Source of the DNA: Candidatus Moraniibacteriota bacterium
GTDB taxonomy: Bacteria; Patescibacteriota; Minisyncoccia; Moranbacterales; UBA1568
DNA: 64,000 bases
Assembly: GCA_013334575.1 (NCBI GenBank)
Contig: JAAXXG010000001.1
Coordinates: 143,637-207,636 of the forward strand
Direction: 5' to 3'
Shown: one piece after another, positions 26,017 through 63,762 of the stretch
Numbering within the stretch: position 1 is the stretch's first letter
How the letters are laid out: each line of letters begins with the position of its first letter
Notes under the pieces: model-generated
What the model was told of the DNA's origin: nothing
What the model saw: the letters and a program-made list of their open reading frames with translations, nothing else
The model's database searches: none
Program-made: the position numbers and the translations under genes

Positions 26017-26032
26017 CGGATACGAAACGAAA

Positions 26033-26076
26033 GCCGACCTCGTCATGTGACGGGCCGGCTTTTTTCTTTTTTTTCG
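26033..26076. terminator. Bidirectional terminator between convergent genes
   Basis: AGCCGaCC-(12 nt)-GGgCCGGCT imperfect stem, followed by a long T-run (TTTTTTCTTTTTTTT). Confidence 0.45.
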
Positions 26077-26088
26077 GAAGAACGGAAA

Positions 26089-26565: not shown

Positions 26566-26844
26566 GGTCCACCTGCCTTTTCCGTATGATGTTTATAAAA
26601 AGTACCGCCACTACCGTACCAGAAAAAGACCGAACTGTAAAGGATGTCACCGTTCCGACAAGAGCCAACTCCATCATATGGCAAGTCGGTTTTTTTTTCG
26701 AATCATCAGAATATAAAAAGAAAAATTTGATACCATCAACGAATGAAGCAGGTATCCATAAGAATCGACATTATTCTGGAATACTCCCACGCAAAAATAA
26801 GCCCGATTCGGCTTCAAGAAATTTTTAAAAATATCAAATTTCCC

Positions 26845-26873
26845 TTGATTTAAAGGTCTATACAGCATATATT
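26845..26873 (+). promoter_or_regulatory. Promoter candidate for gmd
   Basis: TTGATT (26845-50), 17-nt spacer, TATATT (26868-73) in a 340-nt AT-rich region upstream of the ATG at 26908. Confidence 0.35.
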
Positions 26874-26907
26874 AGATAAGAAGCTGTAATAACCTGTTTC
26901 TACGATA

Positions 26908-27957: not shown

Positions 27958-27958
27958 T

Positions 27959-28888
27959 ATGAGAAAGGATTCGAAAATCTATGTTGCGGGACATCGCGGT
28001 CTAGTTGGATCCGCGATTACGCGAAAGTTGCAATCCGAGGGATTCGCGAATCTACTGTTTCGTTCAATAGATGAGCTGAATCTGATGGACACGGTCGCGG
28101 TCAATGATTTTTTTAGGTCCGAAAAACCGGAATATGTATTTCTGGCAGCAGCCAAGGTCGGTGGCATCCTAGCCAACGATACCTATCCTGCAGATTTTAT
28201 CTATCAGAATCTCGCCATCCAGAACAACGTTATCCATGCGGCGTACGAACACAATGCAAAAAAACTGCTCTTTCTCGGAAGTTCCTGCATCTATCCACGA
28301 GACTGTCCTCAACCGATCCGAGAAGACTCTCTCCTCACCGGCCCGCTCGAGAAGACTAACGAAGCATACGCAATAGCCAAAATTGCGGGAATCAAGACGT
28401 GTCAGGCGTTTAATAAACAGTTCGGAACAAGATTCATTTCTGTCATGCCGACGAACCTCTACGGACCGAATGACAATTTCGACCTCGAGAGCTCACACGT
28501 CCTCCCGGCCCTCATCAGGAAGTTTCATGACGCCAAACTCTCTGGAGCGAGCGAGGTTGTCATGTGGGGAACAGGCTCACCGAAGCGCGAATTCCTTCAC
28601 GTGGATGACCTTGCGGATGCATGCATCTTCCTCATGAACACGTACGACGAGTCCGAAATTGTGAACATCGGAACAGGAGAAGACGTTACTATAAGACAGT
28701 TAGTAGAACTAATACGTGATATCGTCGGATTCAAAGGACAGGTCGTCAACGATACGACCAAACCGGACGGAACACCAAGAAAACTCCTCGACGTATCATA
28801 CCTCCACTCGCTAGGATGGAAACACTCCGTCACACTGAAGGAAGGCATCCAAAAAACATACGAATGGTATCTCACCTCAAGAAAATAA
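27959..28888 (+). CDS. fcl: GDP-L-fucose synthase (GDP-4-keto-6-deoxymannose 3,5-epimerase/4-reductase)
   Basis: '[15 protein letters not shown]', 'YAIAKIAGI' and 'NLYGPNDNF'. Starts 2 nt after the gmd stop. Confidence 0.9.
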
Positions 28889-29845
28889 CTTCCTAAACCG
28901 ATGTTTGATTCGTCCAATCAGCTCCCATCCTCCGGATTTTCTGATCCTATCAAGCTCCACCAGTAACGCGGTATTCCGATTTTGGAAATCCGAAACGTCA
29001 CCGTCATCCTTCACGGTCGGAATTTCAGACCGAACGGATCGCTTCAGAAATCGGTCTTTCCTCGTAAGTATCCATGCCAATCGATAGGCTTGACTCAGGA
29101 TTTTCCATTCCCACGACCCGTACACCGTATCCAATTCGGTCTGAAGTTGCTCGCCGTACTTCCGAAGTAACCCGATATCGGTCACGCTCCAGAATGACGA
29201 GCGGTTCGACAGATTCAGCTGATAAAACCGGGATTCCTCATCGGACTCATCCCCGCTCTCGTACCAAGGCAGGTGTCTCGCGACATAAGGAAAACCGGTG
29301 CGGATAGACTTCCACCATCGCTTCTCGCTCGGACGGATACCCGGGCGATACAAAGCGAACGTCGTGTCGATAGGTGCGTCATAAAGCCCCGTTTCTATCT
29401 CATTCGTCCAAAAGCAGCTCTCCCAGTCCGTCACGGAACGCTTGAAAACGTATGCGTCTGGCAAGTCATCGATCCGCAGTCCGAAACCGACCTTCGTGAC
29501 ATCCGGATATCGGTCGAGAACATCGGAAAAGTACGATATGGCATCGAGCGGGCAGAGCGCATCAGGAACGACATCACAGTCGGTAACGACATACCTTTCC
29601 CGGTCGATGACATCGGAAAAGGCGTTACTCTCCCAGACGACCAGATGACCGAAGTTCCTGTCCATGCGGTGCACGGTATGTCCGCACGAGTAAAGATACG
29701 AAAGGAGTGGCGGATAAGTCGATGCATTGTCGACGATGCGGATATCCGTATATCCGGAAGCTTCCAGCCACGAGACAAGCGCCCGAAGATACTTCAGGCG
29801 ATTGAATGAAACGATGAAGACCGGAATATCGTGATACGGTTTCAT
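28877..29845 (-). CDS. Glycosyltransferase (GT-A-like, family not assigned)
   Basis: '[20 protein letters not shown]' nucleotide-sugar transferase-like N-terminus plus a DxD-like 'TDCDVVPD'. 322 aa, low GC. Confidence 0.55.
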
Positions 29846-30564
29846 GAAACCAGCCTGCTTTTTGCGTACGCCCGAAAATCGCCAATTAACCTACCCGGAA
29901 GACCGACCTCCCGCCGAGCCCTCGCATTCTCGATCATTCGCCTCCAAGGATGCGAAGAGCTTGCGCCGTCCATCACGAAATTCGAGAACACCCTATCAGA
30001 AACGGCGACCGAGACTCTTCCATCGTGGAACGCCCTTAGACAGAACAGATAGTCGGCAGCGATCGGAAAACGCTCGTCATACGGACCGAAACGGTCATGC
30101 AGATCCTTTCGGTACAGGAGGGAGGGGTGTTGCATTGGTAGCATGGGCAGATCAGAGGGAGACGACCATACGACCGACGACGTGCGACGGTCACGACTCC
30201 AGACACTCGTTTTTCCGTATATCGCACCGACACCCGGACACTCATCCAAGAGCGTAGTCGCAACAGAAATGGTCTCGGGGTCCAACCAGTCACCCGCGCC
30301 GATGACATTCACGTATTCCCCGGTCGCCATACGGATACCCTTGTTCATCGCGTCGTAGATACCGTGATCCGGTTCGGAAACCCACAGAAGACGACCCGAG
30401 AACCTCGGCTCGTACGACCTGATCACATCCACGGTTCCGTCAGTCGATCCCCCGTCGACGATCACGATTTCGAACGCCTCGCTATCCTGCGCCAGAAACC
30501 CGTCAAGAGTGACTGGAAGCAGCCCCGAGGAGTTCCTAGTGCAAATAACGCAAGAAATCTTCAT
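29842..30564 (-). CDS. GT2 glycosyltransferase
   Basis: 'ISCVICTRN...FEIVIVDGGSTDGT...DAMNKGI' with 'GAGDWL'. A 4-nt overlap with the downstream gene. Confidence 0.85.
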   Translation of the reverse strand: MKISCVICTRNSSGLLPVTLDGFLAQDSEAFEIVIVDGGSTDGTVDVIRSYEPRFSGRLLWVSEPDHGIYDAMNKGIRMATGEYVNVIGAGDWLDPETISVATTLLDECPGVGAIYGKTSVWSRDRRTSSVVWSSPSDLPMLPMQHPSLLYRKDLHDRFGPYDERFPIAADYLFCLRAFHDGRVSVAVSDRVFSNFVMDGASSSHPWRRMIENARARREVGLPGRLIGDFRAYAKSRLVS

Positions 30565-30565
30565 A

Positions 30566-31573
30566 CTAAATTTTCTTTTCCCTTCTCAAAGCATAGTAAA
30601 CTTTTCGGACTGGTTGCCGAAGCCAAGAATGCAAAATTTTCGTGTAATATTTTTTCAAAAATTTTTTTGGGGAAAAAATGACAAAACCTATGTTCAAGCT
30701 AATTCTAGAAAAATTTTTTCGCACTGCGGGTAAAAACTCATACAAAAAATATGCCTGAACAATTGAACATCCATGAACATGACTCAAAATACCAAGGGGT
30801 AATCGCTTCGTCGCTCGAATTCTTCTACACGTATCAATATCAGTTACAGAAATCGTATTATAATACTTATATAATACTTTTGCCGCTTCTTCATCCCCCT
30901 CATATATCAGCTCGGTGGACATTCCGGAAAGACGATATGTTGTAAATATCCGATCAACAAAAACGCTGTCGTATTTCCGAATAACGAGACGTAAAATTAA
31001 ATCCAAATCACCCATAATTAATAAACTATCATCAAACATCCCCTCCCGAAGCAAAACATCCCTTCGAGTAAACATCGTCTGATGATTAAAGGGTGATGCG
31101 GAGAAAAATACGCTGCTGAGATCCGGATATACTACCCACTGACAAGATTTTTTTTGATCTAAAATTTTTGCCGGAGCATAAGAAAATGCTGCTCCCGATC
31201 TCTCGAGCGCTTCAACCGACCACTCAACTCCATGCAAATCGTGCCAATAATCATCTGAATTAAGAAAAACAACATACTTTCCGCGAGCATGCATAATCCC
31301 CTTATTCATCGCGTCATATATGCCTCTATCAGGCTCTGAGATATACCTTAGCCTCTTATACTTCCTGACACATGACGCAAGAAGGTCCGCCGTTCCATCG
31401 TTCGAAGCGCCATCAATAACAATATGTTCTATATTCTGGTACGTTTGCAGATGCACCGATTCAACGCTCTGTAAAAACGTCTCCTTTCTGTTATTCCTAA
31501 TCAGGTTAAAAGTAACCGTCACAACGGTTACTAATGGCAGATTCTCATGATCAATGCGCCTGTCTTTTTGCAT
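30566..31573 (-). CDS. GT2 glycosyltransferase
   Basis: 'VTVVTVTFN...HIVIDGASNDGT...DAMNKGI...NSDD'. Start uncertain, either 31573 or 31633. ~37% GC. Confidence 0.8.
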   Translation of the reverse strand: MQKDRRIDHENLPLVTVVTVTFNLIRNNRKETFLQSVESVHLQTYQNIEHIVIDGASNDGTADLLASCVRKYKRLRYISEPDRGIYDAMNKGIMHARGKYVVFLNSDDYWHDLHGVEWSVEALERSGAAFSYAPAKILDQKKSCQWVVYPDLSSVFFSASPFNHQTMFTRRDVLLREGMFDDSLLIMGDLDLILRLVIRKYDSVFVDRIFTTYRLSGMSTELIYEGDEEAAKVLYKYYNTISVTDIDTCRRIRATKRLPLGILSHVHGCSIVQAYFLYEFLPAVRKNFSRISLNIGFVIFSPKKFLKKYYTKILHSWLRQPVRKVYYALRREKKI

Positions 31574-32834
31574 AAACTTCACGATAGAGATCTGCGTATT
31601 TCTCGAGACACTTCTTTTGTGTAAATTTCTCAAGAAATCTATCTCGAGCCGCTATAGACGCCCTTCTTCTAAGGGCTTCGTCGGCCAAAAACAGATTGAT
31701 ACCTCTCATGAAATCATCAAAGTCTAAATACTTTGCAAGATATCCGGAATTCATATGATCAATCTCTTCCGGAACACCTCCAACATGGAAACTAACAACC
31801 GGAAGAGCGCAGGCCATCGCCTCTAAAACAACGAAAGGCAAATTATCGGCCATGGTTGGAAATATAAATAAGTCCGCAGCAGAATAATACTCAACCAGGC
31901 GTGCCTTATCATAGACGTATCCGCGAGTCATCACGTTCGGATAATCCAGTTCCCCATCATGACCGACGACCAAAAACAAGACGTCCTCCAGACATGTCAT
32001 CTTCTCGATCGCGCGTAAAACATATCCGCCCCCCTTCTGCGGATTATGTACAGATCCATCAGCAAGAAACAGTAAAATCTTTTTGTCCAGAGGAAGGCCT
32101 AATCGTTTCCGCGCGGCCCGCTTATCAATGGGACGCCAAACCTCTTCATCAATTCCATTGTAAATCAGACGGATATCTTTCGCCCCAAGCATACTTCTTG
32201 AAACACGCTCTTTCAACCATTGTGACGGCACGACGACCGTAAAATCTGACTCGTCATAAATTGTTTTTTTCAGTCTCCATAGATAGCCAGTCGAATCTCT
32301 CCTGAGACTCGGATAGTATGATAAAGCCGGACATGACCCACACCCACTGTGCCATCGTTCGCATGAGAATGAGTAAGCGCAGTGACCAGTAAAGCTTTGT
32401 TCGTCATGCAGCGTCCATATCGTTGGCTTTCTAGATGTTAACAACGGAAGCACCTTTGGATTGATATAATCCCCATGAAGATTATGCAAATGAAGTACGT
32501 CTGCTTCTTGAAAAAAATCGTGCGCCAAAAGATTGTCACTATCATGATGTAAGTCCAGCAATCCAAACCATCGATAATAATTTTTTCGCACTACCTGCCA
32601 CCACGAATGATTCTTCCTAAGAACGGCTACCTTTGCATCATCGAGAACTTTCGATTCTGCGCATATCATATATGTAAGAAACCCAAGGCGCCGCATTCCA
32701 ACGCAAAGCATATCGTAAGCCGCACGAGCCGCCCCACCATGTCCTGCAATAGTATTAACAATCAGCACTCCCTTTGGGTTCGAGGTCGCTGAATTATTGC
32801 TGGCATCAAAAATGGAATTTCGAAACTCATCCAT
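31551..32834 (-). CDS. GT4 glycosyltransferase (GT-B)
   Basis: The C-terminal 'GGVPEEIDHMNSGYL' E-x7-E region and 'LPVVS' are typical of GT4. Confidence 0.85.
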   Translation of the reverse strand: MDEFRNSIFDASNNSATSNPKGVLIVNTIAGHGGAARAAYDMLCVGMRRLGFLTYMICAESKVLDDAKVAVLRKNHSWWQVVRKNYYRWFGLLDLHHDSDNLLAHDFFQEADVLHLHNLHGDYINPKVLPLLTSRKPTIWTLHDEQSFTGHCAYSFSCERWHSGCGSCPALSYYPSLRRDSTGYLWRLKKTIYDESDFTVVVPSQWLKERVSRSMLGAKDIRLIYNGIDEEVWRPIDKRAARKRLGLPLDKKILLFLADGSVHNPQKGGGYVLRAIEKMTCLEDVLFLVVGHDGELDYPNVMTRGYVYDKARLVEYYSAADLFIFPTMADNLPFVVLEAMACALPVVSFHVGGVPEEIDHMNSGYLAKYLDFDDFMRGINLFLADEALRRRASIAARDRFLEKFTQKKCLEKYADLYREVYAKRQAH

Positions 32835-32886
32835 AGAAAATCACTCGCTATCCGAACAACCGGCTGGCTAAAAAATCATCTGATTA

Positions 32887-33780
32887 CTACGTAGATTTTA
32901 ACCATTTAGTCACGGATACGCATATTCGCCGAAAAAGAGTCTTTTTTTTCAGGCCGAAGGTATTCTCGTATGTCCATTCGACCTCCTTCATATTTAACTC
33001 AAGCCTCCTAGGATGTAAAATCTCCCCCATCTCATAAGTAGGTAAATTAAGATGAGGATCGTCGCCAGAATAATGAACGCCGTAAACGCCAATATTTGAA
33101 ACAAGATTCTTTGAAGGATTTATACAGAGCCCTTTTTCCTTAAGGATTGCGTAAGTCCATTGGTAATCCCAGACATTATCTTGCTCCTTTTCCATTTTTT
33201 GAAAGATATCTGACCAATATTTGGCGACTTCCTGCCGAGCAAAAGCCTCTTTATAGTTCAATTCTTTATGGTCTTTTATGTGATACTCAAACGATTGCCA
33301 CCGGTCAGCCCATGTCGCCCACCCCCAACAGTGCTCAATCTGCGCAAAATAATAGCTCGCACTACTTCGAAATTTCTTATTAAAATTATTACCGGAGATA
33401 TGCCATACCCGCTTCTCATCGGAATAATAATCAAGCAATGTCTCGCAGAACCTAAAGAAGTCTTCGTGAGGCAGGCAATCATCCTCTAGGATTATTCCGT
33501 CTTTTTCATGCTCAAAAAACCAAGATATACCGCCAGAAACCGCCTTTCCACATCCAAGATTTTTATCGCGAAATAAGGTATGAACTTCACATTCCCAATC
33601 GATACCATCTATAACAAGCTTTCTAACCCGTTCAACAAGCTCCTTCTCGCCTTCTATATTTTCTCGAGCGCCGTCGGATGCGACATACATGCGCGACGGA
33701 CGGACGGCGCGAATAGCCTGAAGCACTTTTAAAGTTGTCTCTGGCCGATTGAAAATGACTAATAAAACCGCTTTTTTCAT
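32887..33780 (-). CDS. Putative nucleotide-diphospho-sugar transferase (GT-A-like)
   Basis: 'KAVLLVIFNRPETTLKVLQAI...DGARE' N-terminus and 'EDDCLPHEDFF'. Low GC. Family assignment is tentative. Confidence 0.5.
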   Translation of the reverse strand: MKKAVLLVIFNRPETTLKVLQAIRAVRPSRMYVASDGARENIEGEKELVERVRKLVIDGIDWECEVHTLFRDKNLGCGKAVSGGISWFFEHEKDGIILEDDCLPHEDFFRFCETLLDYYSDEKRVWHISGNNFNKKFRSSASYYFAQIEHCWGWATWADRWQSFEYHIKDHKELNYKEAFARQEVAKYWSDIFQKMEKEQDNVWDYQWTYAILKEKGLCINPSKNLVSNIGVYGVHYSGDDPHLNLPTYEMGEILHPRRLELNMKEVEWTYENTFGLKKKTLFRRICVSVTKWLKST

Positions 33781-34580
33781 AATTGCCCTCTCCCAAATAT
33801 CAAAGTCCTCCTTGTTCGAGCAAGAACGCTATAGCCACGCTCCCTCAAAAAATTATACTCCTCCGTTTCTTCATATTCCATAATATCTCTATCAACAATA
33901 TCGAGAGCTTCTACAAGCAAAAAGTCCGGTCTATAAAGATCCCAATCAAGCGATTGTAATATTACATAGTCTAACCCTTCAACATCCAGGTTCATGAAGT
34001 CTATTTTTTTTCCTTCTGGCACGTACTGCTTAAGCAACTCATTAATATTCAATGTTCGAATAGACTCCTTACCTAGAAGCTCCCACCCCTCACGAATTCG
34101 CAACTCGCTTATCTCTTGATTAAAAGAGTTTAGAGCTGGCTCGCGAAAGCTATAATATTGCAACACTCCTCCTACTTCAGAAATACCGGCTTCGATGTTT
34201 ATATCGTGCACCCTTTTTCTATTGAAAAGCTCCATAGATCCTGGAAGGGCATCTATATTGATCCCGCTCCATCCGCGTTCATAATAATACTGCGTATTCG
34301 AATACCTATAAGGATGAAAAGCTCCTATATCAACATAGAATCCTTTGTACCCTGGAAGTGACTCATAAAATGCCGCTAAAACTATATCTTCCCCATCTTG
34401 CGAATACGATCTCCTAGAGTATCGAAAACGCTCGGACTCGTCCAGGTTTTCTACGCTTTTTTTTATCTCATTAAAATCTGCGATGGCTTCCTTCATCTCG
34501 ACTATCGCATCATTAACCGAAAAAAGCTTCTCCTCTAATCCGCGAAAATAATCTGGAATTCGTTTTAAGGGATTCTTCAT
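33777..34580 (-). CDS. FkbM-family SAM-dependent methyltransferase
   Basis: 'YSQDGEDIVLAAFY...GFYVDIGAFHP' is the FkbM signature. It lies adjacent to wzt, as terminal-capping methyltransferases do in ABC-transporter-dependent O-polysaccharide pathways. Confidence 0.8.
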   Translation of the reverse strand: MKNPLKRIPDYFRGLEEKLFSVNDAIVEMKEAIADFNEIKKSVENLDESERFRYSRRSYSQDGEDIVLAAFYESLPGYKGFYVDIGAFHPYRYSNTQYYYERGWSGINIDALPGSMELFNRKRVHDINIEAGISEVGGVLQYYSFREPALNSFNQEISELRIREGWELLGKESIRTLNINELLKQYVPEGKKIDFMNLDVEGLDYVILQSLDWDLYRPDFLLVEALDIVDRDIMEYEETEEYNFLRERGYSVLARTRRTLIFGRGQL

Positions 34581-35836
34581 ACTCTTTCTTTGAACTCTTT
34601 TACTGCCATCTCGTAATCAAAATCTATCGGACTCCAATTCACACGGTCGCTAAAGACCTGAATTTTTGCAATTGATTCTCTTGCGTCAAGAACTTCGAAC
34701 TTCGCGTGTGACTTTACATCCGCAGTTGCAACATAGACATTATACGAACCAGGCGCAAGAAGCATCTCACCGGATATGGTACATTCCAATGCAGTACCCT
34801 TGGCAACCTCTCCATATCTTAGAGGTTTCCTTGAATATAAGCTGTGAGCGCCATAAACGTCCCTCCCGAAATTATCTTTAAACATCAGTTCGAAAGTTGG
34901 ATTCGAAACACTCGAAAGATACTTGATAATGATTTTTACGTAGAATTTTTTTCCTGTCTCTAAGACGAAGGTCTGATCATGCGAGCTATTTTCAAATACA
35001 CAGGACTGAATTATAGCTCTCTTGCTGCCCGCATCAGAATGAAGATCGACTTTCTCCTGTTCCATGATCTGCACTTTCATCCGCCTCTCTTCTTCGGACA
35101 TGTTTATGTCCATGTACCTGTAAATAGCCTGTTTTGAATCTCCGATAAATTCCATTTTTCCTCCATTTAAAAGCATCACTCTATCACAATACTCGCCAAC
35201 AGTCTGAATATCATGAGAAACAAGCACAACTGTTTTCCCTTTTTTCTTGTATAATTCGAACTCATTAATGCATTTCGCCTGGAAGTTGGAGTCGCCGACG
35301 GCGAGGACCTCGTCCATGAGAAGGATGTCGCGGTTCGCGTGGATGGAGACCGAGAACGCGAGGCGGACCTGCATGCCGCTCGAATAGTTCTTGAGCTTCT
35401 GGTCGATGAACCGGCCGAGTTCGGAGAATTCGACGATCGAGTCGAACTTTTCGTCGATCTGTTTCTTGGTCATGCCGAGGACGGTCGCGTTGAGGTAGAT
35501 ATTGTCGCGGCCGGAGAGTTCCGGATTGAACCCGATGCCGAGCTCGAGGAAGGGCGAGATGAGACCGTTCGTACGGACCGTTCCCTTGTCCGCCTCGTAG
35601 ATGCCGGCGAGGATCTTGAGGAGGGTCGACTTGCCGCTGCCGTTGCGGCCGATGACGCCGAAGAACTCCCCCTTCTTCACCTCGAAGGAGACGTCGTCGA
35701 GCGCCTTGAACTCCTCGAAGGTGCGCTTTCCCTTGAGCGCGCCCACGAACGCTCCGCGTATCGAAGACACCTTCTCGTGCGGAATGCGGAAGGTCTTGGA
35801 GACGTTCTTGACGCTTATGGCGATATCCTGGTCCAT
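34577..35836 (-). CDS. wzt: O-antigen/teichoic-type polysaccharide ABC exporter ATP-binding protein with a C-terminal carbohydrate-binding extension
   Basis: Walker A 'GRNGSGKST', signature 'YSSGMQVRL' and Walker B 'ILLMDEVLAVGD', followed by a ~170-aa C-terminal beta-rich domain. GC composition switches from high (5' 560 nt) to low (3' 700 nt) inside the gene. Confidence 0.85.
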   Translation of the reverse strand: MDQDIAISVKNVSKTFRIPHEKVSSIRGAFVGALKGKRTFEEFKALDDVSFEVKKGEFFGVIGRNGSGKSTLLKILAGIYEADKGTVRTNGLISPFLELGIGFNPELSGRDNIYLNATVLGMTKKQIDEKFDSIVEFSELGRFIDQKLKNYSSGMQVRLAFSVSIHANRDILLMDEVLAVGDSNFQAKCINEFELYKKKGKTVVLVSHDIQTVGEYCDRVMLLNGGKMEFIGDSKQAIYRYMDINMSEEERRMKVQIMEQEKVDLHSDAGSKRAIIQSCVFENSSHDQTFVLETGKKFYVKIIIKYLSSVSNPTFELMFKDNFGRDVYGAHSLYSRKPLRYGEVAKGTALECTISGEMLLAPGSYNVYVATADVKSHAKFEVLDARESIAKIQVFSDRVNWSPIDFDYEMAVKEFKERV

Positions 35837-35962
35837 TCCCCTATTCTACCCCATTCCGAACGTTCTTCCCAGTCAGACGGACAGTTGACAAAATATCGGG
35901 AAAAAGCCATATTAAGGAGCTGTTTCAAAACATTCATCAATCTATCCCGCAAGGAGGCTTCT

Positions 35963-36631
35963 ATATCGCTTCAACCACCGAAGGACTTACCCCGCATCCA
36001 AAAACTTTCCCACCGTCGTCTGGACATCGGTAAGCCCATCATCCTCTGGACGAAAAAGGATCCCTATTATGGAAACGGGGTCGGATTCCGCTACGCAATC
36101 GCTGACGCCGATCCGAAAACCGGAACGCCCGCCACCTGCCGAATCGTACTCGCATCCAATCATCCGGACCTCGTTCTCGGCAAGGCGTATGCAGCGACCG
36201 TCGAAGCCGTAAAGTGGCCCGATAAGCCATGCTGGATGCGTCGATACGATAGACCCTCAGTCGAGATCTCCTACCTGTCGGTCTTCGATGTGACCCCGGT
36301 GCCGATCTACGAAACCATCCGGATCTTCGAGACCGAAGCAGCCGTCTATACCTGGACCGACGGTTATCTCATCTCGGAGCACCGGATCCCGATCACGAAC
36401 CGACGGAAGGATTTCCGTTATGACAACCGGGTGGTCAGGACGATCGAGTATTCCGACTCGTATGGCACCTTCCGCCGGGACGAACTACCGCCGGATACGG
36501 ATATGTCGACATACGGACCAGAGGATTTCGATGCTCTTCCGGAACTGACCGACGGGCAGCATCGCACTCTTGGAAACTTCTTCGTCACCCCGAGAAACTT
36601 TGTTCTGAGAAACGGAAAGCCGCCGGCGTAA
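35963..36631 (+). CDS. Hypothetical protein; start codon uncertain
   Basis: High GC3 coding signal from ~35990 to the stop at 36631. There is no in-frame ATG. Candidate starts are ATA at 35963 (SD AAGGAGG 5 nt upstream) or TTG at 35885. The tool ORF (from 35339) runs antisense through wzt and is not believed. Confidence 0.4.
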   Translation: MSLQPPKDLPRIQKLSHRRLDIGKPIILWTKKDPYYGNGVGFRYAIADADPKTGTPATCRIVLASNHPDLVLGKAYAATVEAVKWPDKPCWMRRYDRPSVEISYLSVFDVTPVPIYETIRIFETEAAVYTWTDGYLISEHRIPITNRRKDFRYDNRVVRTIEYSDSYGTFRRDELPPDTDMSTYGPEDFDALPELTDGQHRTLGNFFVTPRNFVLRNGKPPA

Positions 36632-51907: not shown

Positions 51908-54900
51908 TCAATATATCACATTCGCCTTTCCCTTCTCCGTCTCGAATTTCGGAATAATCAGACCCGGTATCCACTCCACCGAAGGATACCCGGCGCCACG
52001 GTTCCCAGGAATGGGATACCGAATCAAAAGCGTCCGATCAACCAACGGTAGATAGGACGAGGCTAACCGTTGAGAGCCACTTTGAAGTTCAGACGTCAAG
52101 AATACATGCCGATTCCGGACGGGACCAAGAAACCAGTCATACCTTGCACTGCAAGAAACGACCGAAGAAGGCGATCCATCATACGTGACGGATAATGACC
52201 CGATATCCGACGATCCGACACGATCCGTCCGATCGAACGAAACGGACGTCTCATGACCGGCCTCATCACGAATCAACGCTGAGACACGGACCATTCCTTT
52301 CTTTCTGAAGACGGGTTTCTCCGTCGTTTCAACGGAAACGGCATCCACGCCGCTTACCGCGACACCTCCAACGGAAGCGTCAAAGCCGATTCTCGCCTCC
52401 GGGGCGACCTTGTCGATCCGCACCTCGAAATACCGCTCGTTTTCGACGTTTCCCGCCATATCAGTCGCGCGGAAACGGATACTCGTCGCCCCCTCGCGAT
52501 CTACCGAAAACGGACCGGCATATTTATTCCACTCCGCCGCGTCTCCAAGGACGTATTCGATCCTATCGACACCACTTCCATCCGCTCCGTCATCCGCAGA
52601 CAGCGCGACCGATACGGATCCGACATACCACCCGTTTTTCCCAGCCTTTCCCGAGACGCTCGCGGTCGATATCGGAGACGCTCCATCGGGTGGCAGAGTC
52701 GCCGAACCGTCAAGTATCGGCTCGACGATATATTCACCACCCGCGGAGGTCGTGTCATAATCCGCACGAAGCGCCGATAGTTCCTTTAGCCCTTCTGCCG
52801 ACACCGAAAGCTCGACCGCCGTCTCCGGCCCAACCGGAAGCGCTTCAAACGTAACATTGGAACGAACCGTCTCGGTACCGTCGGACGCTTCGTCAACCTC
52901 ATCCAGTCGAAGCGTATATGCACCTTCCGCATAGCCGGAAAGATGAATCTTCACCGGATATCCGGCGGGGAACGAGAGATACTTCCGACCACCGAGATCC
53001 AGATAGGTACTGCCCGGAATTCCGACCTCGACATCCGAATACCGCGCCCCGTCAGCTCCGATTATCGGAGCGCCAACAGGTCCGGTATGGTTCCCTTCGG
53101 CATCTTCCAGACTGATGTCGAGTGGAGAATGAAGAGAAACTCGAATTTTTGGTTTCGCGTTATCATAGTCAGTTGGACGATCTGTCTCGATGTACTCCGG
53201 AAGATGGCTTTCATCATCTTTTCTAAGAATTATTTTCTTTATTAATTCGCGAATTGTTAATCCTTCAAGAAGTTTTCCGTGATTTATATTGGAGGTACTT
53301 GCATCATTGTAGTCATACAAATTTAGCCAATACCGCTTCACATTCCCATCTGAATCGCTCATCAGAAGCGCGCTCGGTGTTGTCACGACCGCGTCGCCGT
53401 CAACGGTGAACTCGGGTTCATATACGGGAGTCGCTCGTTCCGACTTCCAGCAGGAAGGAATTTTCCCATTCGAAACCGGCCGGCACACCGATTCATATTC
53501 CTCGGCATACCGAACCCCGCGAACCGTATCCAACCCCCATCCGGCAATCTGGATGACTTCTACACCGGCCGGAGGCGTCCAGGAATCCAAATCGTCATGC
53601 ATGGCCTGCGAAAGGTCCAGCAACCTGCCATTAAGAACGTTCTCAGCCTCGACGTCGTTCGGATCCGGCTTACTCCGTCCGTCCTTCGTACCGGAAAGGA
53701 ATGATTCAAGATCTCCCCGGCTTTCGATTTCCTTTCCGTACGAATGCAGATAATCAGCATATCTTGTCCACTCCGAATCGAACCGAACGAGAGGTTGTCG
53801 GGTCCGGCCGAAATATTCCGAGGAGGGAAGAAGCCCGTACGCTCCCGGCATATTCTCGGCCAGCGTTCTCGCATCGGACCGCGTCGCAAGCAGACCGCCC
53901 AGGATGGACTCGTCGTATCCGTACAGGAGCGAGAGGATCGATATCGGGGTCCCCATCTGCGGAGTACCGACAAGAATCACGCGGTCGACGATCCCGGCAT
54001 CTCCCTGCTCTTCCAACTGCTTCACGAGCGCTTTCGCGACCAGTCCGCCGTTCGAATGGGCGACGATCGTCACCTTCCCCGTCTTCGAGATATCGGCCAG
54101 TTCACGTATCCGATCAAGTAGTCGCCGTTCACCCTCCCGGTATGGCGTACTTTCAGAAACAACATCCTCGACGTCCATCCTCCAATCGTACGCGAACGGG
54201 ACGTATCCGGTTATCGTCCCGACGTCCTGCATGCCTTGCAGGTCGGACAGGAACGACTCATAGTATCGGTCCGGACCGACCGAATCCAGGACGTCGTCGG
54301 TATACACGTCATGAACACTGCGTCCGTCGGAATTGAGCGCGAGATCGTCAAGGTCGTTCCCGAAAAGGGTCGGCGGCCACAACTGATCTTCGCCTGAACC
54401 GCTCCTCGTATAGAGACGACTCGCCTTGATACCCGGAAGGAAGAGGACGTTCGACGCCATGTCGGACCGTTCCTGAACGTTCTTATCACGATTGAATCCG
54501 ACGAGCCGATGAGGCCCGGATATCCGCTCACCGCCACCCTGCGGATACCTGTCACCCGACGGGCCGGAGGAAGAACCGAACCAGTCGTTCTCCAGGGAAA
54601 TACGGCCGGAATAATCTGCTTCCCCATCGTATTCGATGAGGGAAACAAGCGCGGTTTTGTCGGAATCTCCTTCGAAATCGGAATCCTTGATCCGAATAAG
54701 ATCCGTAGAATCCCACTCGTCGGAAAACCACATGGATACACGGACTCCGGCATAGGCTACGTTGTTGCGAAACACGGAATGCTCGATGAGCAGTTTTCCA
54801 TTCCGATACTCGATTGCCGGCGCAATGAATGCCTCATCTTCCGCAGCAATCGCCATGTGACCCAGCCAGGAGCGGAATCCGCCCGTATCGACAGCGTACG

Positions 54901-55435
54901 ACGGGCAGTGTCCGGCATACGGCTTCCTATCGGAGCCCATGCCATCGAAAATGACGTTTCTGAGAATCGATGCCTCGTCATTCTCTTCCTGATAACCGAA
55001 GAACCCGATCGTCCCGGGCGGAAACACCCGATAGCATTCCTCGTCATACTCACCCGCCCCGTTCGGTGGCAGCTTGATATACGAGGGAGCCGGTACGAAT
55101 ATCACAGGCTCGGAATCGGTTCCCTGCGCATCGATCCGACCGCTGAACACCTTAAGCTCGCCGATTTCGACCTTCGTACCCTTCTCGATTGTCAGCGTCG
55201 CGCCGTTTACGACGGCGACAGGCTTCGTAAGATCAGTCTGACGAAAAGAGCCTGTCCAAGTGGTATCGGAATCTATCACTTCATAATCCTCATAGTTCTG
55301 CCACAGATCCTCATCCTCAGCTGAAACATTTCCCACGAAAACCGAACGCAACGAAGGCGCTATCAAAGCAAGGCACAAAAAAATCACCGCACTCCCGGTG
55401 ATAGAGAAAAAATATCGACGAAGCATATCAGTCAT
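51908..55435 (-). CDS. Large secreted multidomain protein with an alpha/beta-hydrolase (lipase/esterase-like) domain and Ig-like (Big_3-type) domains
   Basis: ~1,176 aa. Signal peptide 'MLRRYFFSITGSAVIFLCLALIA', nucleophile-elbow 'TIVAHSNGGLVA' (GxSxG-like), an Ig-like repeat 'VDRIEYVLGDAAEWNKY...RATDMAGN' and a beta-helix-like N-terminal region. The true start may be ATG at 55435/55426 rather than the tool's GTG at 55441. Confidence 0.7.
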   Translation of the reverse strand: MTDMLRRYFFSITGSAVIFLCLALIAPSLRSVFVGNVSAEDEDLWQNYEDYEVIDSDTTWTGSFRQTDLTKPVAVVNGATLTIEKGTKVEIGELKVFSGRIDAQGTDSEPVIFVPAPSYIKLPPNGAGEYDEECYRVFPPGTIGFFGYQEENDEASILRNVIFDGMGSDRKPYAGHCPSYAVDTGGFRSWLGHMAIAAEDEAFIAPAIEYRNGKLLIEHSVFRNNVAYAGVRVSMWFSDEWDSTDLIRIKDSDFEGDSDKTALVSLIEYDGEADYSGRISLENDWFGSSSGPSGDRYPQGGGERISGPHRLVGFNRDKNVQERSDMASNVLFLPGIKASRLYTRSGSGEDQLWPPTLFGNDLDDLALNSDGRSVHDVYTDDVLDSVGPDRYYESFLSDLQGMQDVGTITGYVPFAYDWRMDVEDVVSESTPYREGERRLLDRIRELADISKTGKVTIVAHSNGGLVAKALVKQLEEQGDAGIVDRVILVGTPQMGTPISILSLLYGYDESILGGLLATRSDARTLAENMPGAYGLLPSSEYFGRTRQPLVRFDSEWTRYADYLHSYGKEIESRGDLESFLSGTKDGRSKPDPNDVEAENVLNGRLLDLSQAMHDDLDSWTPPAGVEVIQIAGWGLDTVRGVRYAEEYESVCRPVSNGKIPSCWKSERATPVYEPEFTVDGDAVVTTPSALLMSDSDGNVKRYWLNLYDYNDASTSNINHGKLLEGLTIRELIKKIILRKDDESHLPEYIETDRPTDYDNAKPKIRVSLHSPLDISLEDAEGNHTGPVGAPIIGADGARYSDVEVGIPGSTYLDLGGRKYLSFPAGYPVKIHLSGYAEGAYTLRLDEVDEASDGTETVRSNVTFEALPVGPETAVELSVSAEGLKELSALRADYDTTSAGGEYIVEPILDGSATLPPDGASPISTASVSGKAGKNGWYVGSVSVALSADDGADGSGVDRIEYVLGDAAEWNKYAGPFSVDREGATSIRFRATDMAGNVENERYFEVRIDKVAPEARIGFDASVGGVAVSGVDAVSVETTEKPVFRKKGMVRVSALIRDEAGHETSVSFDRTDRVGSSDIGSLSVTYDGSPSSVVSCSARYDWFLGPVRNRHVFLTSELQSGSQRLASSYLPLVDRTLLIRYPIPGNRGAGYPSVEWIPGLIIPKFETEKGKANVIY

Positions 55436-55835
55436 ACTCACTGTTTATGCCATAACTCCATTTCAAAGATATCATGCGACTCACAAAGAGAAAAGTTACA
55501 TCTGGCATCCTTCGGAAATGACACCGCCCGGGAGGGATACTCTCGGGCGGGAATCGGCAGGATTTGCCGGTTTTCGGAAAAGCGGGTTCGGACGCGGTCA
55601 GCAGGACGGCTCAACCGACGAACGAGACCGAGGAAAGGAGAAAGAGAAAGGCAAGAATGAATCCCTTCTTTTCCCATATAAAACGAAGTGTCTTTCGAAC
55701 CGCGATCGGCTCCGGATTGGCAGCGAACGGAGAGAGGCTGACTGCATTCACAGTAAACACCGTCTCGCCGGCCATGACAAGGCGGGGAAGAAAAGACGGG
55801 TTGTATATTCCGATAATGTAGAGGGTGGGATGGAA

Positions 55836-59222: not shown

Positions 59223-60119
59223 TTACTTCGTCCGCATTCGATAGCGGGTCACCAAAAGGGCCGACGCGACGAAAATCGAGGAATAGGTCCCGAATCCGAC
59301 GCCGATCAGGAGCGCGACCGCGAACCAGCGGACACCCTCGCCGCCGATCGCCGCGATGACCGCGAGCACGATGAGCACGGTCAGCGAGGTGTTGATGGAG
59401 CGGGACATCGTCTCGTTGACCGATCGGTTGACGACAGTCTCGAAATCCGCTTTCCGCTGCGACCGAAGCAGGTTCTCGCGGATGCGGTCATAAACCACAA
59501 TCGTATCGTTCACCGAATAACCGAGGATGGTCAGAAGCGCGGCAATGAACGGAACGCCGACCTCGACCCCGTACACCTTGCCAAGCACAGCAAAGAAGCC
59601 GGTCGTGATGAGCAGGTCATGTGCCAGGGCGATGACCGCTCCCCAGCCGTATTCCCACGACCCGATCGGATGGGACACCTTCCGGAAGGCAAATGCGATA
59701 TAGGCCGCAATGGCAAGCACTGAGAGTAATGTCCCCCAGACGGCGTTCTTACGGATATCGCCGGACACGGATGCGCCGATGAAGTCCGTTCGGACGACCG
59801 TCAGCCCAGCATCGACCCCGCGCAACGCCTCGAGCACCCTGCCGTTTGCGGAATCGTCGGAGGCAAGGAACCGGATGATCATCCCGTTCTCGCCCGTCAC
59901 CTGGACGGTCAGACTACGAAGGTCGAGCGGACGAAGCGCATCCTGTACCTCGGAGACGGTCGGGATGGGATCCTTCGCGAAGCGGGTTTCGATCAGGGTA
60001 CCGCCCTGGAAATCGAGTCCGAGCCGGAGCCCGAACGTGGCGAGCGCGATTATCGAAAGGACCGCCAGCGTCCCCGAAAACCAGTAGGTATATTTCCTGG
60101 CGCCGATGATGTTGAGCAT
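59223..60119 (-). CDS. secF: Protein translocase subunit SecF
   Basis: 'LGLDFQGGTLIE' and 'ILGYSVNDTIVVYDRIREN', the SecF signature. Start at MLNIIGARKY, 19 nt after the secD stop. Confidence 0.9.
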   Translation of the reverse strand: MLNIIGARKYTYWFSGTLAVLSIIALATFGLRLGLDFQGGTLIETRFAKDPIPTVSEVQDALRPLDLRSLTVQVTGENGMIIRFLASDDSANGRVLEALRGVDAGLTVVRTDFIGASVSGDIRKNAVWGTLLSVLAIAAYIAFAFRKVSHPIGSWEYGWGAVIALAHDLLITTGFFAVLGKVYGVEVGVPFIAALLTILGYSVNDTIVVYDRIRENLLRSQRKADFETVVNRSVNETMSRSINTSLTVLIVLAVIAAIGGEGVRWFAVALLIGVGFGTYSSIFVASALLVTRYRMRTK

Positions 60120-60138: not shown

Positions 60139-61842
60139 TTATTTCCGTCCCTCCCGTTCCTCATCCGAAAGCCGTTTCGGAATGACGAGAATCGCCTTCC
60201 GCGTCTCGGCCCACGCACCCACCACGAATCGGAGCCATGTATGCACGAGGACGACCGCGGTGAAGAGTGACAAAAGGACGCCAAGCGCGAGGATGACCGC
60301 GAACCCCTTCACGAAACCGGTGCCGAGCATGGTCAGGATGACCGTCGTGATAAGGGTCGAGACGTGCCCGTCACGAATACTCGGCCAGGCCCGACGAAAG
60401 CCTTCCTCGAGCGCCTTCGCGACCGACTTCCCATACGCCAGCTCCTCGCGGGCACGCTCGAAGATAAGCACGTTCGCGTCCACGGCGATCCCGATCGACA
60501 GAATGAAACCCGCGATGCCGGAAAGCGTGAGCGTGATGGGGAACGGCGTGTAGCCGGACAACCGGAAAATCGCGAGCAACATCGCCGAGTAGACGAGGAG
60601 AGCGAACACGGCGCCAAGACCCAGGAACCGGTAATAGAAAACCATGAAGATGGAAACCGCCAACAGGCCGATGAGGCCGGCGAAGACGCTCTGTCGCAGC
60701 GCGCTCTCGCCGAGAGAGGCGTCGATCGATTGCTGCCCCACAAGCGTGATCGGGACCGGAAGTGCCCCCTCGTTCAACCGTCCGACGAGCGTCTTCACCT
60801 CGTCGAGCGTGAAGTTGCCCGTAATCTGTGCCTTTCCTCCGAAGATCTCGTCCTGCACGGTCGGCGCGCTTACCACTTCGCCATCGAGGAAGATCGCGAT
60901 CGGCTTGCCGATATTCCGCTTGGTTATCTCGGCAAAGAGCTGTGAGCCCTCGGTGTCGAACTGCAGTGACACTTGCGGCATACCGAAGCCCTGCCCCTGA
61001 TAATCGACCGCCGCGCTCTTGAGATTCTTCCCGGACAGTCCGGTCGCCTTGTATCTGACCGAATCCGGCAGCATGTCCGCCGATTCCTTGGGGAAGAGGA
61101 TGTGTGCCACATCCACCTCGCGGTCATCGCCCTCGCCCCGCTCGGCAAGCTTCTTGATGATATGCCATCCGTACGGACTTTCGACGAGTTCTGGATATAC
61201 GGCTCCCGACTTGAAATCGTCCTTGAAGACGATATCATCGAATGCCTGGACGTAGGAACCCTTCTTGGCGAATCCGAGATCTCCGCCCTGCCCCTTCGAA
61301 CCGGGATCCTGACTGTACTGCTCGGCAAGTGCCGCGAAATCCTCGCCCTTCCGCGCGCGGTCCAGAACGTCTTCCGCCTGCTTCTTCGCGTCGGCGTTCG
61401 CTGCATCTATCTTGGCAGGAAGCGAGTCGTCCTGCTCGCGAAACTCGAGATACGGCGTCTCTTTGAGCATCTTCTTCGCCTCCTCGATATCCTTCACGCC
61501 GGGAAGCTCGACAATGATGCGATCCTCGGAACCGGACCTCGACAGCTGGATCACCGACTCGCCGACGCCGAACGCGTTCACGCGGCGCTCCACGACCGCC
61601 TTGGCAGCCTCGAGCGCCTCCTGTTTCTTTCCGGCCGGAACCTCGGAGGTATCCGCCGCGTATTCAAGATGGATACCGCCTTGCAGGTCGAGTCCAAGAT
61701 TGATCTTCAAAGACCGCTCGACCGCGGCAGCATCGATACCGGGAAGATACGAAAGTACCTTCGGGTACGCGATAACCCCCGAAACGAGCGCGAGCGCGAG
61801 AACGCCGGCGAACTGCCAGCGGATTTTGTCCTTCTGTTTCAT
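60139..61842 (-). CDS. secD: Protein translocase subunit SecD with an inserted parvulin-type PPIase domain
   Basis: The SecD TM core 'VDANVLIFERARE' and 'GLDLQGG' are present. Residues ~170-270 carry the PpiC signature 'EDFAALAEQYSQDPGSKGQGGDLGF...VQAFDDIVF...SPYGWHIIKKL' inside the periplasmic P1 domain. Confidence 0.9.
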   Translation of the reverse strand: MKQKDKIRWQFAGVLALALVSGVIAYPKVLSYLPGIDAAAVERSLKINLGLDLQGGIHLEYAADTSEVPAGKKQEALEAAKAVVERRVNAFGVGESVIQLSRSGSEDRIIVELPGVKDIEEAKKMLKETPYLEFREQDDSLPAKIDAANADAKKQAEDVLDRARKGEDFAALAEQYSQDPGSKGQGGDLGFAKKGSYVQAFDDIVFKDDFKSGAVYPELVESPYGWHIIKKLAERGEGDDREVDVAHILFPKESADMLPDSVRYKATGLSGKNLKSAAVDYQGQGFGMPQVSLQFDTEGSQLFAEITKRNIGKPIAIFLDGEVVSAPTVQDEIFGGKAQITGNFTLDEVKTLVGRLNEGALPVPITLVGQQSIDASLGESALRQSVFAGLIGLLAVSIFMVFYYRFLGLGAVFALLVYSAMLLAIFRLSGYTPFPITLTLSGIAGFILSIGIAVDANVLIFERAREELAYGKSVAKALEEGFRRAWPSIRDGHVSTLITTVILTMLGTGFVKGFAVILALGVLLSLFTAVVLVHTWLRFVVGAWAETRKAILVIPKRLSDEEREGRK

Positions 61843-62054
61843 GGCAGGAATGCTAATAACGGCAGTATATCGGCATTTTTCCTTCTTGGGAAGGGTTGAC
61901 AGATATATATTTTATAATCCTTATATCATATCGGCCAAATCATCCGGAATCTAATTAACATGATGAGGTCCAAAATATACGCGTTAAATCCAAAAAAAAG
62001 AAGCGTTCTTTAAAAGAGCGCCCACTCAGGAAAAACTCAGTGCGAAATCGCACG

Positions 62055-62085
62055 AAAAAACTTCCCGCTGTGCAGGTGCGGCTTT
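62055..62085 (-). terminator. Terminator candidate after the ABC-F gene
   Basis: On the minus strand CCGC-(9 nt)-GCGG followed by GAAGTTTTTT. A second hairpin GTGCGA-aat-TCGCAC at 62040-54 has a weaker U tract. Confidence 0.35.
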
Positions 62086-62103
62086 TTTACGTTTTTCCAG
62101 GTA

Positions 62104-63762
62104 TCACACTTTCCGTGTCTCCTTCTCGAGATATTCGAGATAGCCTTTCTCGACAGATACCTTCCCCGCTTCGACGGAGCGGACCTGGTCGAATTCGAGC
62201 GTCGAGAGAAATGCCCGATCGTGCGAGACGAGGATGACCGTCCCCGGAAACAGCCGAAGCGCGTCGGCCAGAGCCTCCACCGCCTCGAGATCAAGATGAT
62301 TCGTCGGTTCGTCGAGCACGAGTACCGGGACCTTCTTCGCCGTAAGGAAAGCAAGCGAAAGCCGCATGCGTTCACCGGGAGAGAGTTCACCCATCGGAAA
62401 GGAAAGCTCGTCCGTAGTGAGAAGGAATTTCCCGAGGAACCGGGAAACCTCCGCCGGCTCGGTAATCGGCGTCGACCCGACAAACCATTCGATCGCGGTC
62501 AGGTCCTTCGGTATCCGGTCGTTCTCCTGTGACAGGATCCCGAACGATACCCCTTCGCCGACCTCGCGTGTCCCGGAACGCAGCGGAAGTTCTCCGGTAA
62601 CCATCCTGAGTACCGTCGACTTACCGGCGCCGTTGCGACCGAACAGGCCGACATGCGACCCGTACGGGATATCCATATCGACCGGACCCGCGACAAACCC
62701 GTCGTATCCTGCCGTCGCACCCGAGAGCGCGATACCGCGGTCCTCCCCGGAGTCCGCCTCGAAAAAGATGGCGAGCGGATCGCGGATCGCCGAGACCTTC
62801 ACGCGCCGGACCTTCTCGGCACGGGTCGTCAACGCCTTAGCCGCCGCGCCGAACTTCCGCTCCGCGCGATCACGATGATACCCCTGCGACATGCGGTCCT
62901 TGTCCGGCATCTTCTGTTCGCCGCCGATCCGCGCCCACTCCCGCTTCTCGTCCGCGGTCTCATACAGTCTCACCCGTTCATCCTCCATCCGCGACTGCTC
63001 CTCCCGAAGTCGACGGAGTTCCTCCGCCTTCTCCTTGAAATAGGTCGAGTAGTTCCCGGACCACATACGCGTCGTCCGGAAGTGCCAGTCGATCTCGAGC
63101 ACCTTCTCGACGACCGCGTCGAGGAACATGCGGTCGTGCGACGCGACGATGACCGCCGAAGCGCTCTCCCGCAGGTACGACTCAAGCCAAAGAATACCGG
63201 GGAGATCGAGATCGTTCGTCGGTTCGTCGAGCAGCAGGAGGTCTGCCTCGGACAGGAGCGCCGCCGCGAGCGCGGCACGCCGACGTTCGCCGCCACTCAT
63301 TTCCGACAGGGTCCGATCAGGGGGCATATGCCCCAGTCCCACCCCTTCTATCGCCCGTTCCGCCTTGCGATCGAAGGTATATCCTTCCATCCGGTCGTAC
63401 CGCTCGCGCAGCTCACCATACCGCTCGAGATTTACGGGATCGTCGAGATGCGGTTCGAGACGCGACATCTCGGACTCGAGCTCCGCGATACCCGAAGCGC
63501 GACGCAGATAGCCGGAAAGCGTATCGTCGGTCGCGTCCTGCGGGAGTTCCTGTGGCAGGTACGAGACGGTCATCCGCCGTTCGCGAACCACCTCGCCACG
63601 GTCTTCCTTCTCCTCGCCCGCGAGTATCCGCAGAAGCGTCGACTTCCCGACACCGTTGCACCCTACGAGCGCGATTCTCTGCCCCCGGGCGACCGAAAAG
63701 TCCGCCCCGAGAAGAACCCGGACGGGACCGTACCGCTTGAAGATGTTTCGGACAGTAAGCAT
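62104..63762 (-). CDS. ABC-F family ATPase (tandem ABC domains, no TM; translation-associated)
   Basis: Two Walker A motifs 'GCNGVGKST' and 'GRNGAGKST', two signature motifs 'LSGGERRR' and 'LSPGERMR', and an inter-domain linker. Start trimmed to MLTVRNIFKRY. Confidence 0.9.
   Translation of the reverse strand: MLTVRNIFKRYGPVRVLLGADFSVARGQRIALVGCNGVGKSTLLRILAGEEKEDRGEVVRERRMTVSYLPQELPQDATDDTLSGYLRRASGIAELESEMSRLEPHLDDPVNLERYGELRERYDRMEGYTFDRKAERAIEGVGLGHMPPDRTLSEMSGGERRRAALAAALLSEADLLLLDEPTNDLDLPGILWLESYLRESASAVIVASHDRMFLDAVVEKVLEIDWHFRTTRMWSGNYSTYFKEKAEELRRLREEQSRMEDERVRLYETADEKREWARIGGEQKMPDKDRMSQGYHRDRAERKFGAAAKALTTRAEKVRRVKVSAIRDPLAIFFEADSGEDRGIALSGATAGYDGFVAGPVDMDIPYGSHVGLFGRNGAGKSTVLRMVTGELPLRSGTREVGEGVSFGILSQENDRIPKDLTAIEWFVGSTPITEPAEVSRFLGKFLLTTDELSFPMGELSPGERMRLSLAFLTAKKVPVLVLDEPTNHLDLEAVEALADALRLFPGTVILVSHDRAFLSTLEFDQVRSVEAGKVSVEKGYLEYLEKETRKV

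Follow-up and report, generated by a model that had tools for sequence, protein, structure and literature searches.

A parvulin-type prolyl isomerase domain inserted into the P1 region of SecD in Moranbacteria and related Patescibacteria

Background

In SecDF, as known from the structures of Thermus thermophilus and Deinococcus radiodurans, the P1 head captures the polypeptide chain leaving SecYEG and swings with the flow of protons through the transmembrane (TM) bundle. Parvulins are peptidyl-prolyl cis/trans isomerases (PPIases) with the canonical order β1-α1-α2-α3-β2-α4-β3-β4, where β1 comes first and bears the first His ("xHILV"). Here we describe a secD gene that joins the two, located in a 64,000-nucleotide stretch of DNA from Candidatus Moraniibacteriota bacterium (assembly GCA_013334575.1, contig JAAXXG010000001.1, positions 143,637 to 207,636), hereafter called the window, in which all positions are numbered. 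Its product carries a parvulin domain within the extracytoplasmic P1 region.

How secreted proteins pass from the Sec channel to the factors that fold them outside the cytoplasm is still an unanswered question, and PpiD/YfgM, SurA and a PrsA-like dome of Mycoplasma have been physically placed on SecYEG/SecDF only in 2022-2026. PpiD/YfgM is a binding partner of SecYEG (PMC9643414), and SurA makes contact with the holotranslocon (PMC9987972). The dome that sits on SecDF/SecYEG in Mycoplasma pneumoniae is built of PrsA-like PPIC proteins, with substrate density touching a catalytically competent PPIC domain (10.1101/2025.04.25.650208); Mpn444 can be crosslinked to SecD, and its PPIase activity has been measured (10.1101/2024.09.05.611430). 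These findings support the logic of a foldase tethered to the Sec machinery.

Results and discussion

A parvulin domain in the base-to-head linker of SecD

The secD open reading frame (ORF) is intact, running from its ATG through the stop codon over exactly positions 60139-61842 of the reverse strand (Table 1), and its product matches the NCBIfam equivalog-domain model for secD, TIGR01129, with 377.2 bits against a cutoff of 244.4. The protein shows the topology of SecD, namely TM1, a large extracytoplasmic P1 made of base and head, and then five TM helices. After TM1, the next TM segments in the hydropathy scan begin at about residue 385; residues 31-380, including the insert, are therefore placed outside the cytoplasm, as in the solved SecDF structures. 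D455 in TM4 is invariant in 75 sequences and aligns with D340 of T. thermophilus SecDF, a residue reportedly assigned a role in the proton pathway by Tsukazaki and colleagues in 2011. A gene for the SecF partner lies adjacent.

The initial annotation proposed that a parvulin is inserted in this SecD, and this is borne out: the Pfam families Rotamase and Rotamase_3 match between SecD_1st and the P1 head, which is the linker from base to head. The motifs on which the proposal drew (DF..LA..YS.D, GGDLGF, QAFDD.VF and SPYGWHIIK) are present at residues 168-231. The occurrence of a parvulin in SecD is a real observation, far beyond chance. A Foldseek search with the full AlphaFold2 (AF2) model returned only SecDF (5xan, 3aqp) and RND matches, and as these did not inform on the insert, the latter was predicted alone as well; it has the parvulin three-dimensional fold, a four-stranded sheet with four helices packed on it.

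The parvulin fills a variable linker between the strand "TPxLEF(K/R)E", which ends the N-terminal part of the P1 base, and the motif "T.L(S/T)GxxL", which opens the head core. On alignment with insert-free SecDs of other Candidate Phyla Radiation (CPR) lineages, Chloroflexota and Cyanobacteria, the same linker was found to comprise 20-45 poorly conserved residues. The Pfam head profile is matched from position 17-19 onward in insert-free CPR SecDs, with the same coverage as in this SecD, and hence the insert displaced nothing. The length of the linker varies among SecDs; residues 118-161 of the T. thermophilus protein fall within it, and residue 321 of Escherichia coli SecD aligns with residue 262 here.

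No SurA_N or trigger-factor-like Pfam match was obtained in this SecD, in which the parvulin is flanked by P1 base and P1 head, and the anchor is a polytopic SecD instead of the lipoprotein, single-TM anchor or soluble periplasmic form of PrsA-, SurA- and PpiD-type chaperones. With SecD P1 base and head as flanks and no chaperone domain, the protein is not a member of the PrsA family, though it may work like PrsA.

Active site and proposed role

The insert has the active-site set of parvulins (His, Asp or Cys, His) together with a hydrophobic proline pocket. The initial annotation had made its proposal depend on catalytic His and Cys residues; both His residues are present (H227 and H247), whereas the acidic position is occupied by Asp (D179) and not by Cys. 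D179 stands at what we take to be the position of Pin1 C113 and Par14 D74. Among 75 homologues, G187 and G225 are invariant, S177 is found in 74 and W226 in 73, and the pocket residues L189 and F201 are kept in 71 and 70, respectively, with Y197 also present and conserved. The pair of positions 227 and 247 is His-His in 71 sequences, Ile-Ile in two, Phe-Val in one and Phe-Phe in one, and never mixed. The resulting covariation is suggestive but not statistically strong, as the four sequences without the His pair probably represent only two or three independent events. Mean pairwise identity is 0.585 in the insert as compared with 0.77-0.80 in the SecD core, so that the insert evolves faster; that the catalytic positions are sharply conserved nonetheless points to selection on parvulin chemistry. 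In sequence alignments, the insert is closest to the active-type parvulins PrsA and the second parvulin (P2) of SurA.

Considering these features, the gene probably encodes a functional SecD, partnered with SecF, whose P1 parvulin acts as a foldase and holdase tethered to the translocon. The placement of a foldase at the translocon, suggested in the initial annotation, is supported, with catalytic activity inferred. An unfolded secretory chain would exit SecYEG and be captured by the mobile P1 head, while the parvulin in the base-to-head linker would be held within reach of the captured chain. The adjacent parvulin could then bind the chain, catalyse prolyl cis/trans isomerisation and speed the release of secreted proteins, so that the translocon would have, as it were, its own built-in PrsA or PpiD.

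A number of points weigh against this assignment. Both His residues are missing in four of the 75 relatives, and the β1 His position is taken by Glu or Gln in some lineages, with mixed states outside the Moranbacteria family (His/Glu in locus L007 and His/Gln-Glu in the free-standing protein P0128). Where relatives carry two parvulin units (see below), the first begins at α1 and is usually degenerate. Sec-associated parvulins can be catalytically dead, as are the PpiD parvulin and the first parvulin (P1) of SurA. The full-length AF2 model has a predicted template modelling score of 0.51, at which the modelled arrangement of parvulin and P1 head is unreliable. Moreover, the genome of a close relative encodes a separate PrsA-like parvulin beside an HtrA-like protease, and the fused domain is for this reason not the sole candidate foldase; it would probably supplement the free foldases and not replace them. 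That the fusion substitutes for a missing PrsA was considered and rejected, since the PrsA-like gene lies on the contig of a relative with 98% identity (L081).

The precedent of the PpiD parvulin and SurA P1 also gives rise to the main alternative, that the insert is a catalytically silent module for substrate docking or chaperoning, holding chains for the P1 head without isomerising them. We regard this as unlikely, although it deserves serious attention, because this protein and 71 of the 75 close relatives retain the Asp, the two His residues and an intact hydrophobic pocket, all of which vary far less than the remaining positions of the insert, and because the best sequence matches are to parvulins of the active type.

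An apparently circularly permuted order of elements

The foldase proposed here does not follow the canonical order of parvulins, a feature not noticed in the initial annotation. What had been described there as a full parvulin signature holds as far as the motifs are concerned; however, the stretch concerned is devoid of the usual N-terminal, His-bearing β1, which is found instead at residues 241-251. The insert begins at α1 and β1 follows β4. The Pfam matches accordingly begin at profile position 10 (Rotamase) or 32 (Rotamase_3), corresponding to helix α1, with no β1 N-terminal to it. After β4 ("GWHIIKKLAER") comes a conserved turn, R-G-E-G-D (G236 in 74 of 75 sequences, G238 in all 75), which joins β4 to the relocated strand, and then REVDVAHILFPK.

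HMMER aligned the strand at 241-251 to β1 of SurA P2. On moving this strand to the front, the Rotamase match extended to 1-94 (78.9 vs 75.9 bits) and that of Rotamase_3 to 15-113 (92.5 vs 87.0 bits), gains which are modest because the relocated strand is short; with the insert sequence doubled, a profile match of 4-113 spanned the junction. In AF2, a strand is predicted at 242-251 with a predicted local distance difference test (pLDDT) score of about 95, forming a confident β4-β1 hairpin in both the full and the insert-only models. No counterpart of the strand was found in the aligned insert-free SecDs. Taking together the profile extension, the hairpin in both models, the His-His covariation and the missing counterpart, the insert appears, as the best reading, to be a circularly permuted parvulin of order α1-α2-α3-β2-α4-β3-β4-β1, where we infer the three-dimensional position of the strand. 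The SecD strand "LEFRE" was considered as the parvulin β1 and rejected, as it is kept in all insert-free SecDs and the insert folds confidently without it.

It may be argued that "REVDVAHILF" is instead what remains of the β1 of a second unit since lost, or a part of the SecD head, and that the parvulin simply has no β1. In sister lineages with two units, the second one is canonical (Rotamase profile 1-95) and has as its β1 the very strand that follows the first unit, and the best structural match, 8hm3, has the same pattern of β4, turn and RHILL, followed by a weak second parvulin-like repeat. Against this, the strand pairs with β4 as a hairpin in the insert-only model, it is highly conserved, its His and that of β4 change only together within the Moranbacteria family, and it is not present in insert-free SecDs, the P1_head profile beginning downstream of it. 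We therefore hold this explanation to be improbable. It also largely merges with a circular permutation, for when the first unit captures a vestigial β1, this is itself the classic path to one by duplication and deletion.

Tandem forms and candidate donors

Two parvulin units, both in the base-to-head linker, are found in many members outside the Moranbacteria (about 670-730 residues). The second unit matches the full Rotamase profile (1-95/97) with both His residues kept, and an extra β1-like strand follows it. The units may be arranged in either of two ways, with a canonical unit nested in a permuted one or with two permuted units in line. The pattern of His residues favours nesting in seven of ten tandem cases, a weak indication as mixed His states occur elsewhere. 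The tandem forms may represent a parvulin nested in a permuted parvulin that is itself nested in SecD. The existence of single and tandem forms side by side fits the textbook route of duplication and deletion to circular permutation.

The "α1...β4-β1" layout is shared by the free-standing proteins P0217, P0227 and P0128, and by a PrsA-like protein of 358 residues encoded about 5 kb upstream of secD in L081. The last has no N-terminal β1 and contains GFHILLVKDRKAESGKDLVQLAQIFVPK, with the β1 His replaced by Gln. These four proteins are candidate donors of the insert.

Possible coupling to the movement of P1

A bolder proposal, which we put forward as speculative and rather doubtful, is that the insert is a true permutant on a P1 head driven by the proton motive force, and that the swings of SecDF mechanically present the emerging chain to an active PPIase, making an energy-coupled machine for translocation and folding. 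The two-unit relatives would then have a canonical parvulin within the hairpin of a permuted one that itself lies in SecD, making three levels of domain insertion, and the fusion would be Rosetta-stone evidence for a direct hand-off from SecDF to parvulins in bacteria generally. The natural, clade-wide presence of an apparently active parvulin within the P1 of SecD, covalently joined to the domain that captures substrate, constitutes independent evidence, of the gene-fusion type, for a functional link between SecDF and foldases. For structural and biochemical work on the coupling of translocation and folding, it further supplies a compact system made of one polypeptide. How domains evolve by duplication and deletion in a host loop is exemplified by the apparent permutation with its single and tandem variants. 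These aspects would be of interest to specialists of Sec and of chaperones.

The location of the insert can also be taken to indicate a mainly mechanical or anchoring part, as a bulky lever or latch on the swing of the P1 head or as a contact with the cell wall or S-layer, with vestigial foldase chemistry. The base-to-head linker is, from the established mechanism, the region that moves in the SecDF cycle, and in other SecDs, too, it is a hotspot of additional, unrelated sequence, as seen from the E. coli alignment given above. Yet it is the catalytic-site residues that are selectively conserved and not surface features, implying retained parvulin chemistry, and parvulins as wall anchors are without precedent. 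This explanation is accordingly given a very low probability.

Distribution among relatives

All 120 homologues listed (64-98% identity) show the same set of Rotamase and SecD domains, and consequently the insert is not an assembly artefact. The closest database protein (98% identity) is annotated merely as "protein translocase subunit SecD [Candidatus Moranbacteria]". We scanned GTDB species representatives and obtained 80 SecD loci. Using hidden Markov models (HMMs) built from the insert and from its SecD flanks, the insert was found in loci L001-L018, L026 (a gene split by a frameshift) and L061, labelled Moranbacteria, Kerfeld-, Buchanan-, Komeili- or Uhrbacteria, Parcubacteria or Patescibacteria. 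With these HMMs it was not found in the sampled loci of Saccharibacteria, Nomurabacteria, Gracilibacteria and Minisyncoccia or in one Uhrbacteria locus, nor in any sampled SecD of Cyanobacteria, Chloroflexota, Gemmatimonadota, Desulfobacterota or other phyla. 

Six loci (L003, L006, L009 and L016-L018) come from metagenome-assembled genomes (MAGs) with implausible labels (Bdellovibrionales, Lysobacteraceae, Candidatus Binatia, Gammaproteobacteria), yet their CPR-type SecD-parvulin genes nest in the CPR clade, which suggests mis-binning, mislabelling or horizontal transfer. Locus L061 (5980-9048), from a Patescibacteria MAG, encodes a fused SecDF of 1023 residues with a diverged double parvulin insert; the insert is thus present in fused SecDF architectures as well.

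In a crude neighbour-joining tree of the SecD core, computed with the insert removed and without bootstrap, all insert-bearing SecDs fall in one clade within the CPR group, with the insert-free L019 nested inside. This tree is consistent with a single acquisition and occasional loss. The fusion also marks a lineage comprising part of the Patescibacteria. With the insert and short flanks as query, we searched 1.84 billion cluster representatives exhaustively. Among the best 150 matches, 30 are SecD fusions or fragments of such fusions; of the remaining 120, most are canonical multi-parvulin or SurA/PpiD-like proteins, in which the "xHILx" strand precedes the first unit and none follows the last.

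An assembly chimera, frameshift artefact or pseudogene can be dismissed as next to impossible: the ORF is intact and the architecture recurs in the 120 homologues, which come from many independent assemblies, in the GTDB species representatives and in the 30 divergent cluster representatives.

No description of a SecD-parvulin fusion was found in a literature search that covered few subscription-journal papers, so that its absence there is not proof, and the same search yielded no description of a permuted or circularly permuted parvulin. The sequences are public, though annotated simply as SecD, and the components and the functional logic are already known; the covalent architecture, the permuted topology and the clade-wide distribution are not described in the literature found.

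Genomic neighbourhood

For secF, the likely start codon was placed by reference to the corresponding gene call in L081. Upstream of secD, a gap of 260 nucleotides (61843-62103) separates it from an ABC-F gene (62104-63762, reverse strand). Terminator-like hairpins occur in this gap at 62076-62040, along with two weak sigma-70-like promoter matches on the reverse strand (61938-61909 and 61892-61864). These consensus matches suggest that secDF may form its own transcription unit.

The region corresponding to that just past the window end at 64000 is represented in L081 (4146-7088), where a DivIC-like gene, the 358-residue PrsA-like parvulin and the HtrA-like protease (Trypsin_2 and PDZ) lie upstream of the ABC-F gene and secDF. 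They make up an envelope protein-quality-control neighbourhood.

Elsewhere in the window, positions 26000-36000 have a guanine-plus-cytosine fraction of 0.43-0.50 as against 0.56-0.61 in the remainder, and their ORFs make up a surface-glycan cluster (Table 1); this is probably a horizontally acquired glycan island. A very large ORF at 51908-55441 on the reverse strand (1177 residues) corresponds to a protein of 1137 residues with an LCAT/DUF7379 domain called in L081.

Table 1. Features of the SecD-parvulin gene, its tandem relatives and other genes of the window (positions in the window unless a locus is named)
Feature	Residues	Position	Strand	Basis or remark
secD gene, 567 aa, with embedded parvulin domain		60139..61842	-	ATG-to-stop ORF; Pfam and NCBIfam matches
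TM1	about 9-30	61762..61818 (residues 9-27)	-	hydropathy scan, translation; AF2 helix at residues 3-25
Sec_GG	46-66			Pfam
SecD_1st, N-terminal part of P1 base, ending in conserved strand TPYLEFRE	78-139	61426..61611	-	Pfam PF21760, E 1.5e-18; alignment with insert-free SecDs
Inserted parvulin (PpiC-type PPIase) domain	140-252	61087..61425	-	order α1-α2-α3-β2-α4-β3-β4-β1 (apparent)
Rotamase (PF00639)	144-230			E 4.2e-20, 73.0 bits, cutoff 21.7
Rotamase_3 (PF13616)	147-232			E 4.8e-23, 82.4 bits, cutoff 22.5
D179 codon, in "SQDPGS" of SQDPGS...GGDLGF motif	179	61306..61308	-	invariant in 75/75; motif aligns to SurA and PrsA
H227 codon, β4 His, "GWHIIK"	227	61162..61164	-	71/75 sequences
Relocated β1 strand REVDVAHILFP, carrying H247 (apparent)	241-251	61090..61122	-	profile matching, SurA alignment, AF2
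H247 codon, β1 His, "VAHILF"	247	61102..61104	-	71/75 sequences
P1 head core, SecDF_P1_head	265-363	60754..61050	-	Pfam PF22599, E 1.8e-30, profile 17-114
TM2-TM6 / SecD_SecF_C, including invariant D455	370-531	60250..60735	-	Pfam
secF, 298 aa, ATG at 60119, start 19 nt downstream of secD stop		59223..60119	-	TIGR00966, 279 bits, cutoff 160
Tandem SecDs, loci L009-L018		e.g. L009:5317-7515, L010:5896-7965, L011:5833-7953		
GDP-mannose 4,6-dehydratase		26908-27957	+	
Epimerase		27923-28888	+	
Two GT2 glycosyltransferases		29842-31633	-	
GT4/GT1		31551-32834	-	
FkbM methyltransferase		33777-34580	-	
Wzt-type ABC ATPase		34577-35836	-	

Comparison with known systems

The SecDF proteins of T. thermophilus (3AQP, 5YHF) and D. 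radiodurans (5XAN, 5XAP) have in common with the present system the GG motif, P1 base, head core, RND-like TM bundle, TM4 Asp and SecF partner, but secD and secF are separate genes here, and the T. thermophilus linker of roughly 40 residues is replaced by a parvulin of about 113 residues. PrsA, the extracytoplasmic foldase of monoderms (Bacillus subtilis 4WO7/1ZK6, B. anthracis 6VJ6), forms dimers as a lipoprotein, and its parvulin, canonical with β1 first, is accompanied by an N/C chaperone domain, whereas here the anchor is SecD, the chaperone domain is absent and the strand order is apparently permuted.

The tandem parvulins of SurA (1M5Y) resemble the tandem SecDs in having a degenerate unit (P1) followed by an intact one (P2). 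Both units are canonical in SurA, however, while in the SecD array the first element is α1 and the last an additional β1-like strand. The essential periplasmic PPIase of Bacteroides fragilis (8HM3/8HM4, the target of BfUbb) is a soluble SurA-like chaperone of 427 residues; from a sequence comparison covering all of residues 166-262 and part of 56-129, its RHILL strand may be followed by a second, degenerate parvulin unit.

PpiD/YfgM at SecYEG (8ZHT, 2KGJ) and SurA at the holotranslocon are non-covalent partners, in contrast to the covalent arrangement described here. The PpiD parvulin is also without catalytic residues, which the domain in SecD keeps. The Mycoplasma dome (Mdp436/444/489, also Mpn444/436) shows the same coupling of translocation and folding in another genome-reduced, wall-less or monoderm lineage. 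There, separate large lipoproteins form a chamber, whereas in the present case SecD itself has one small parvulin built in covalently.

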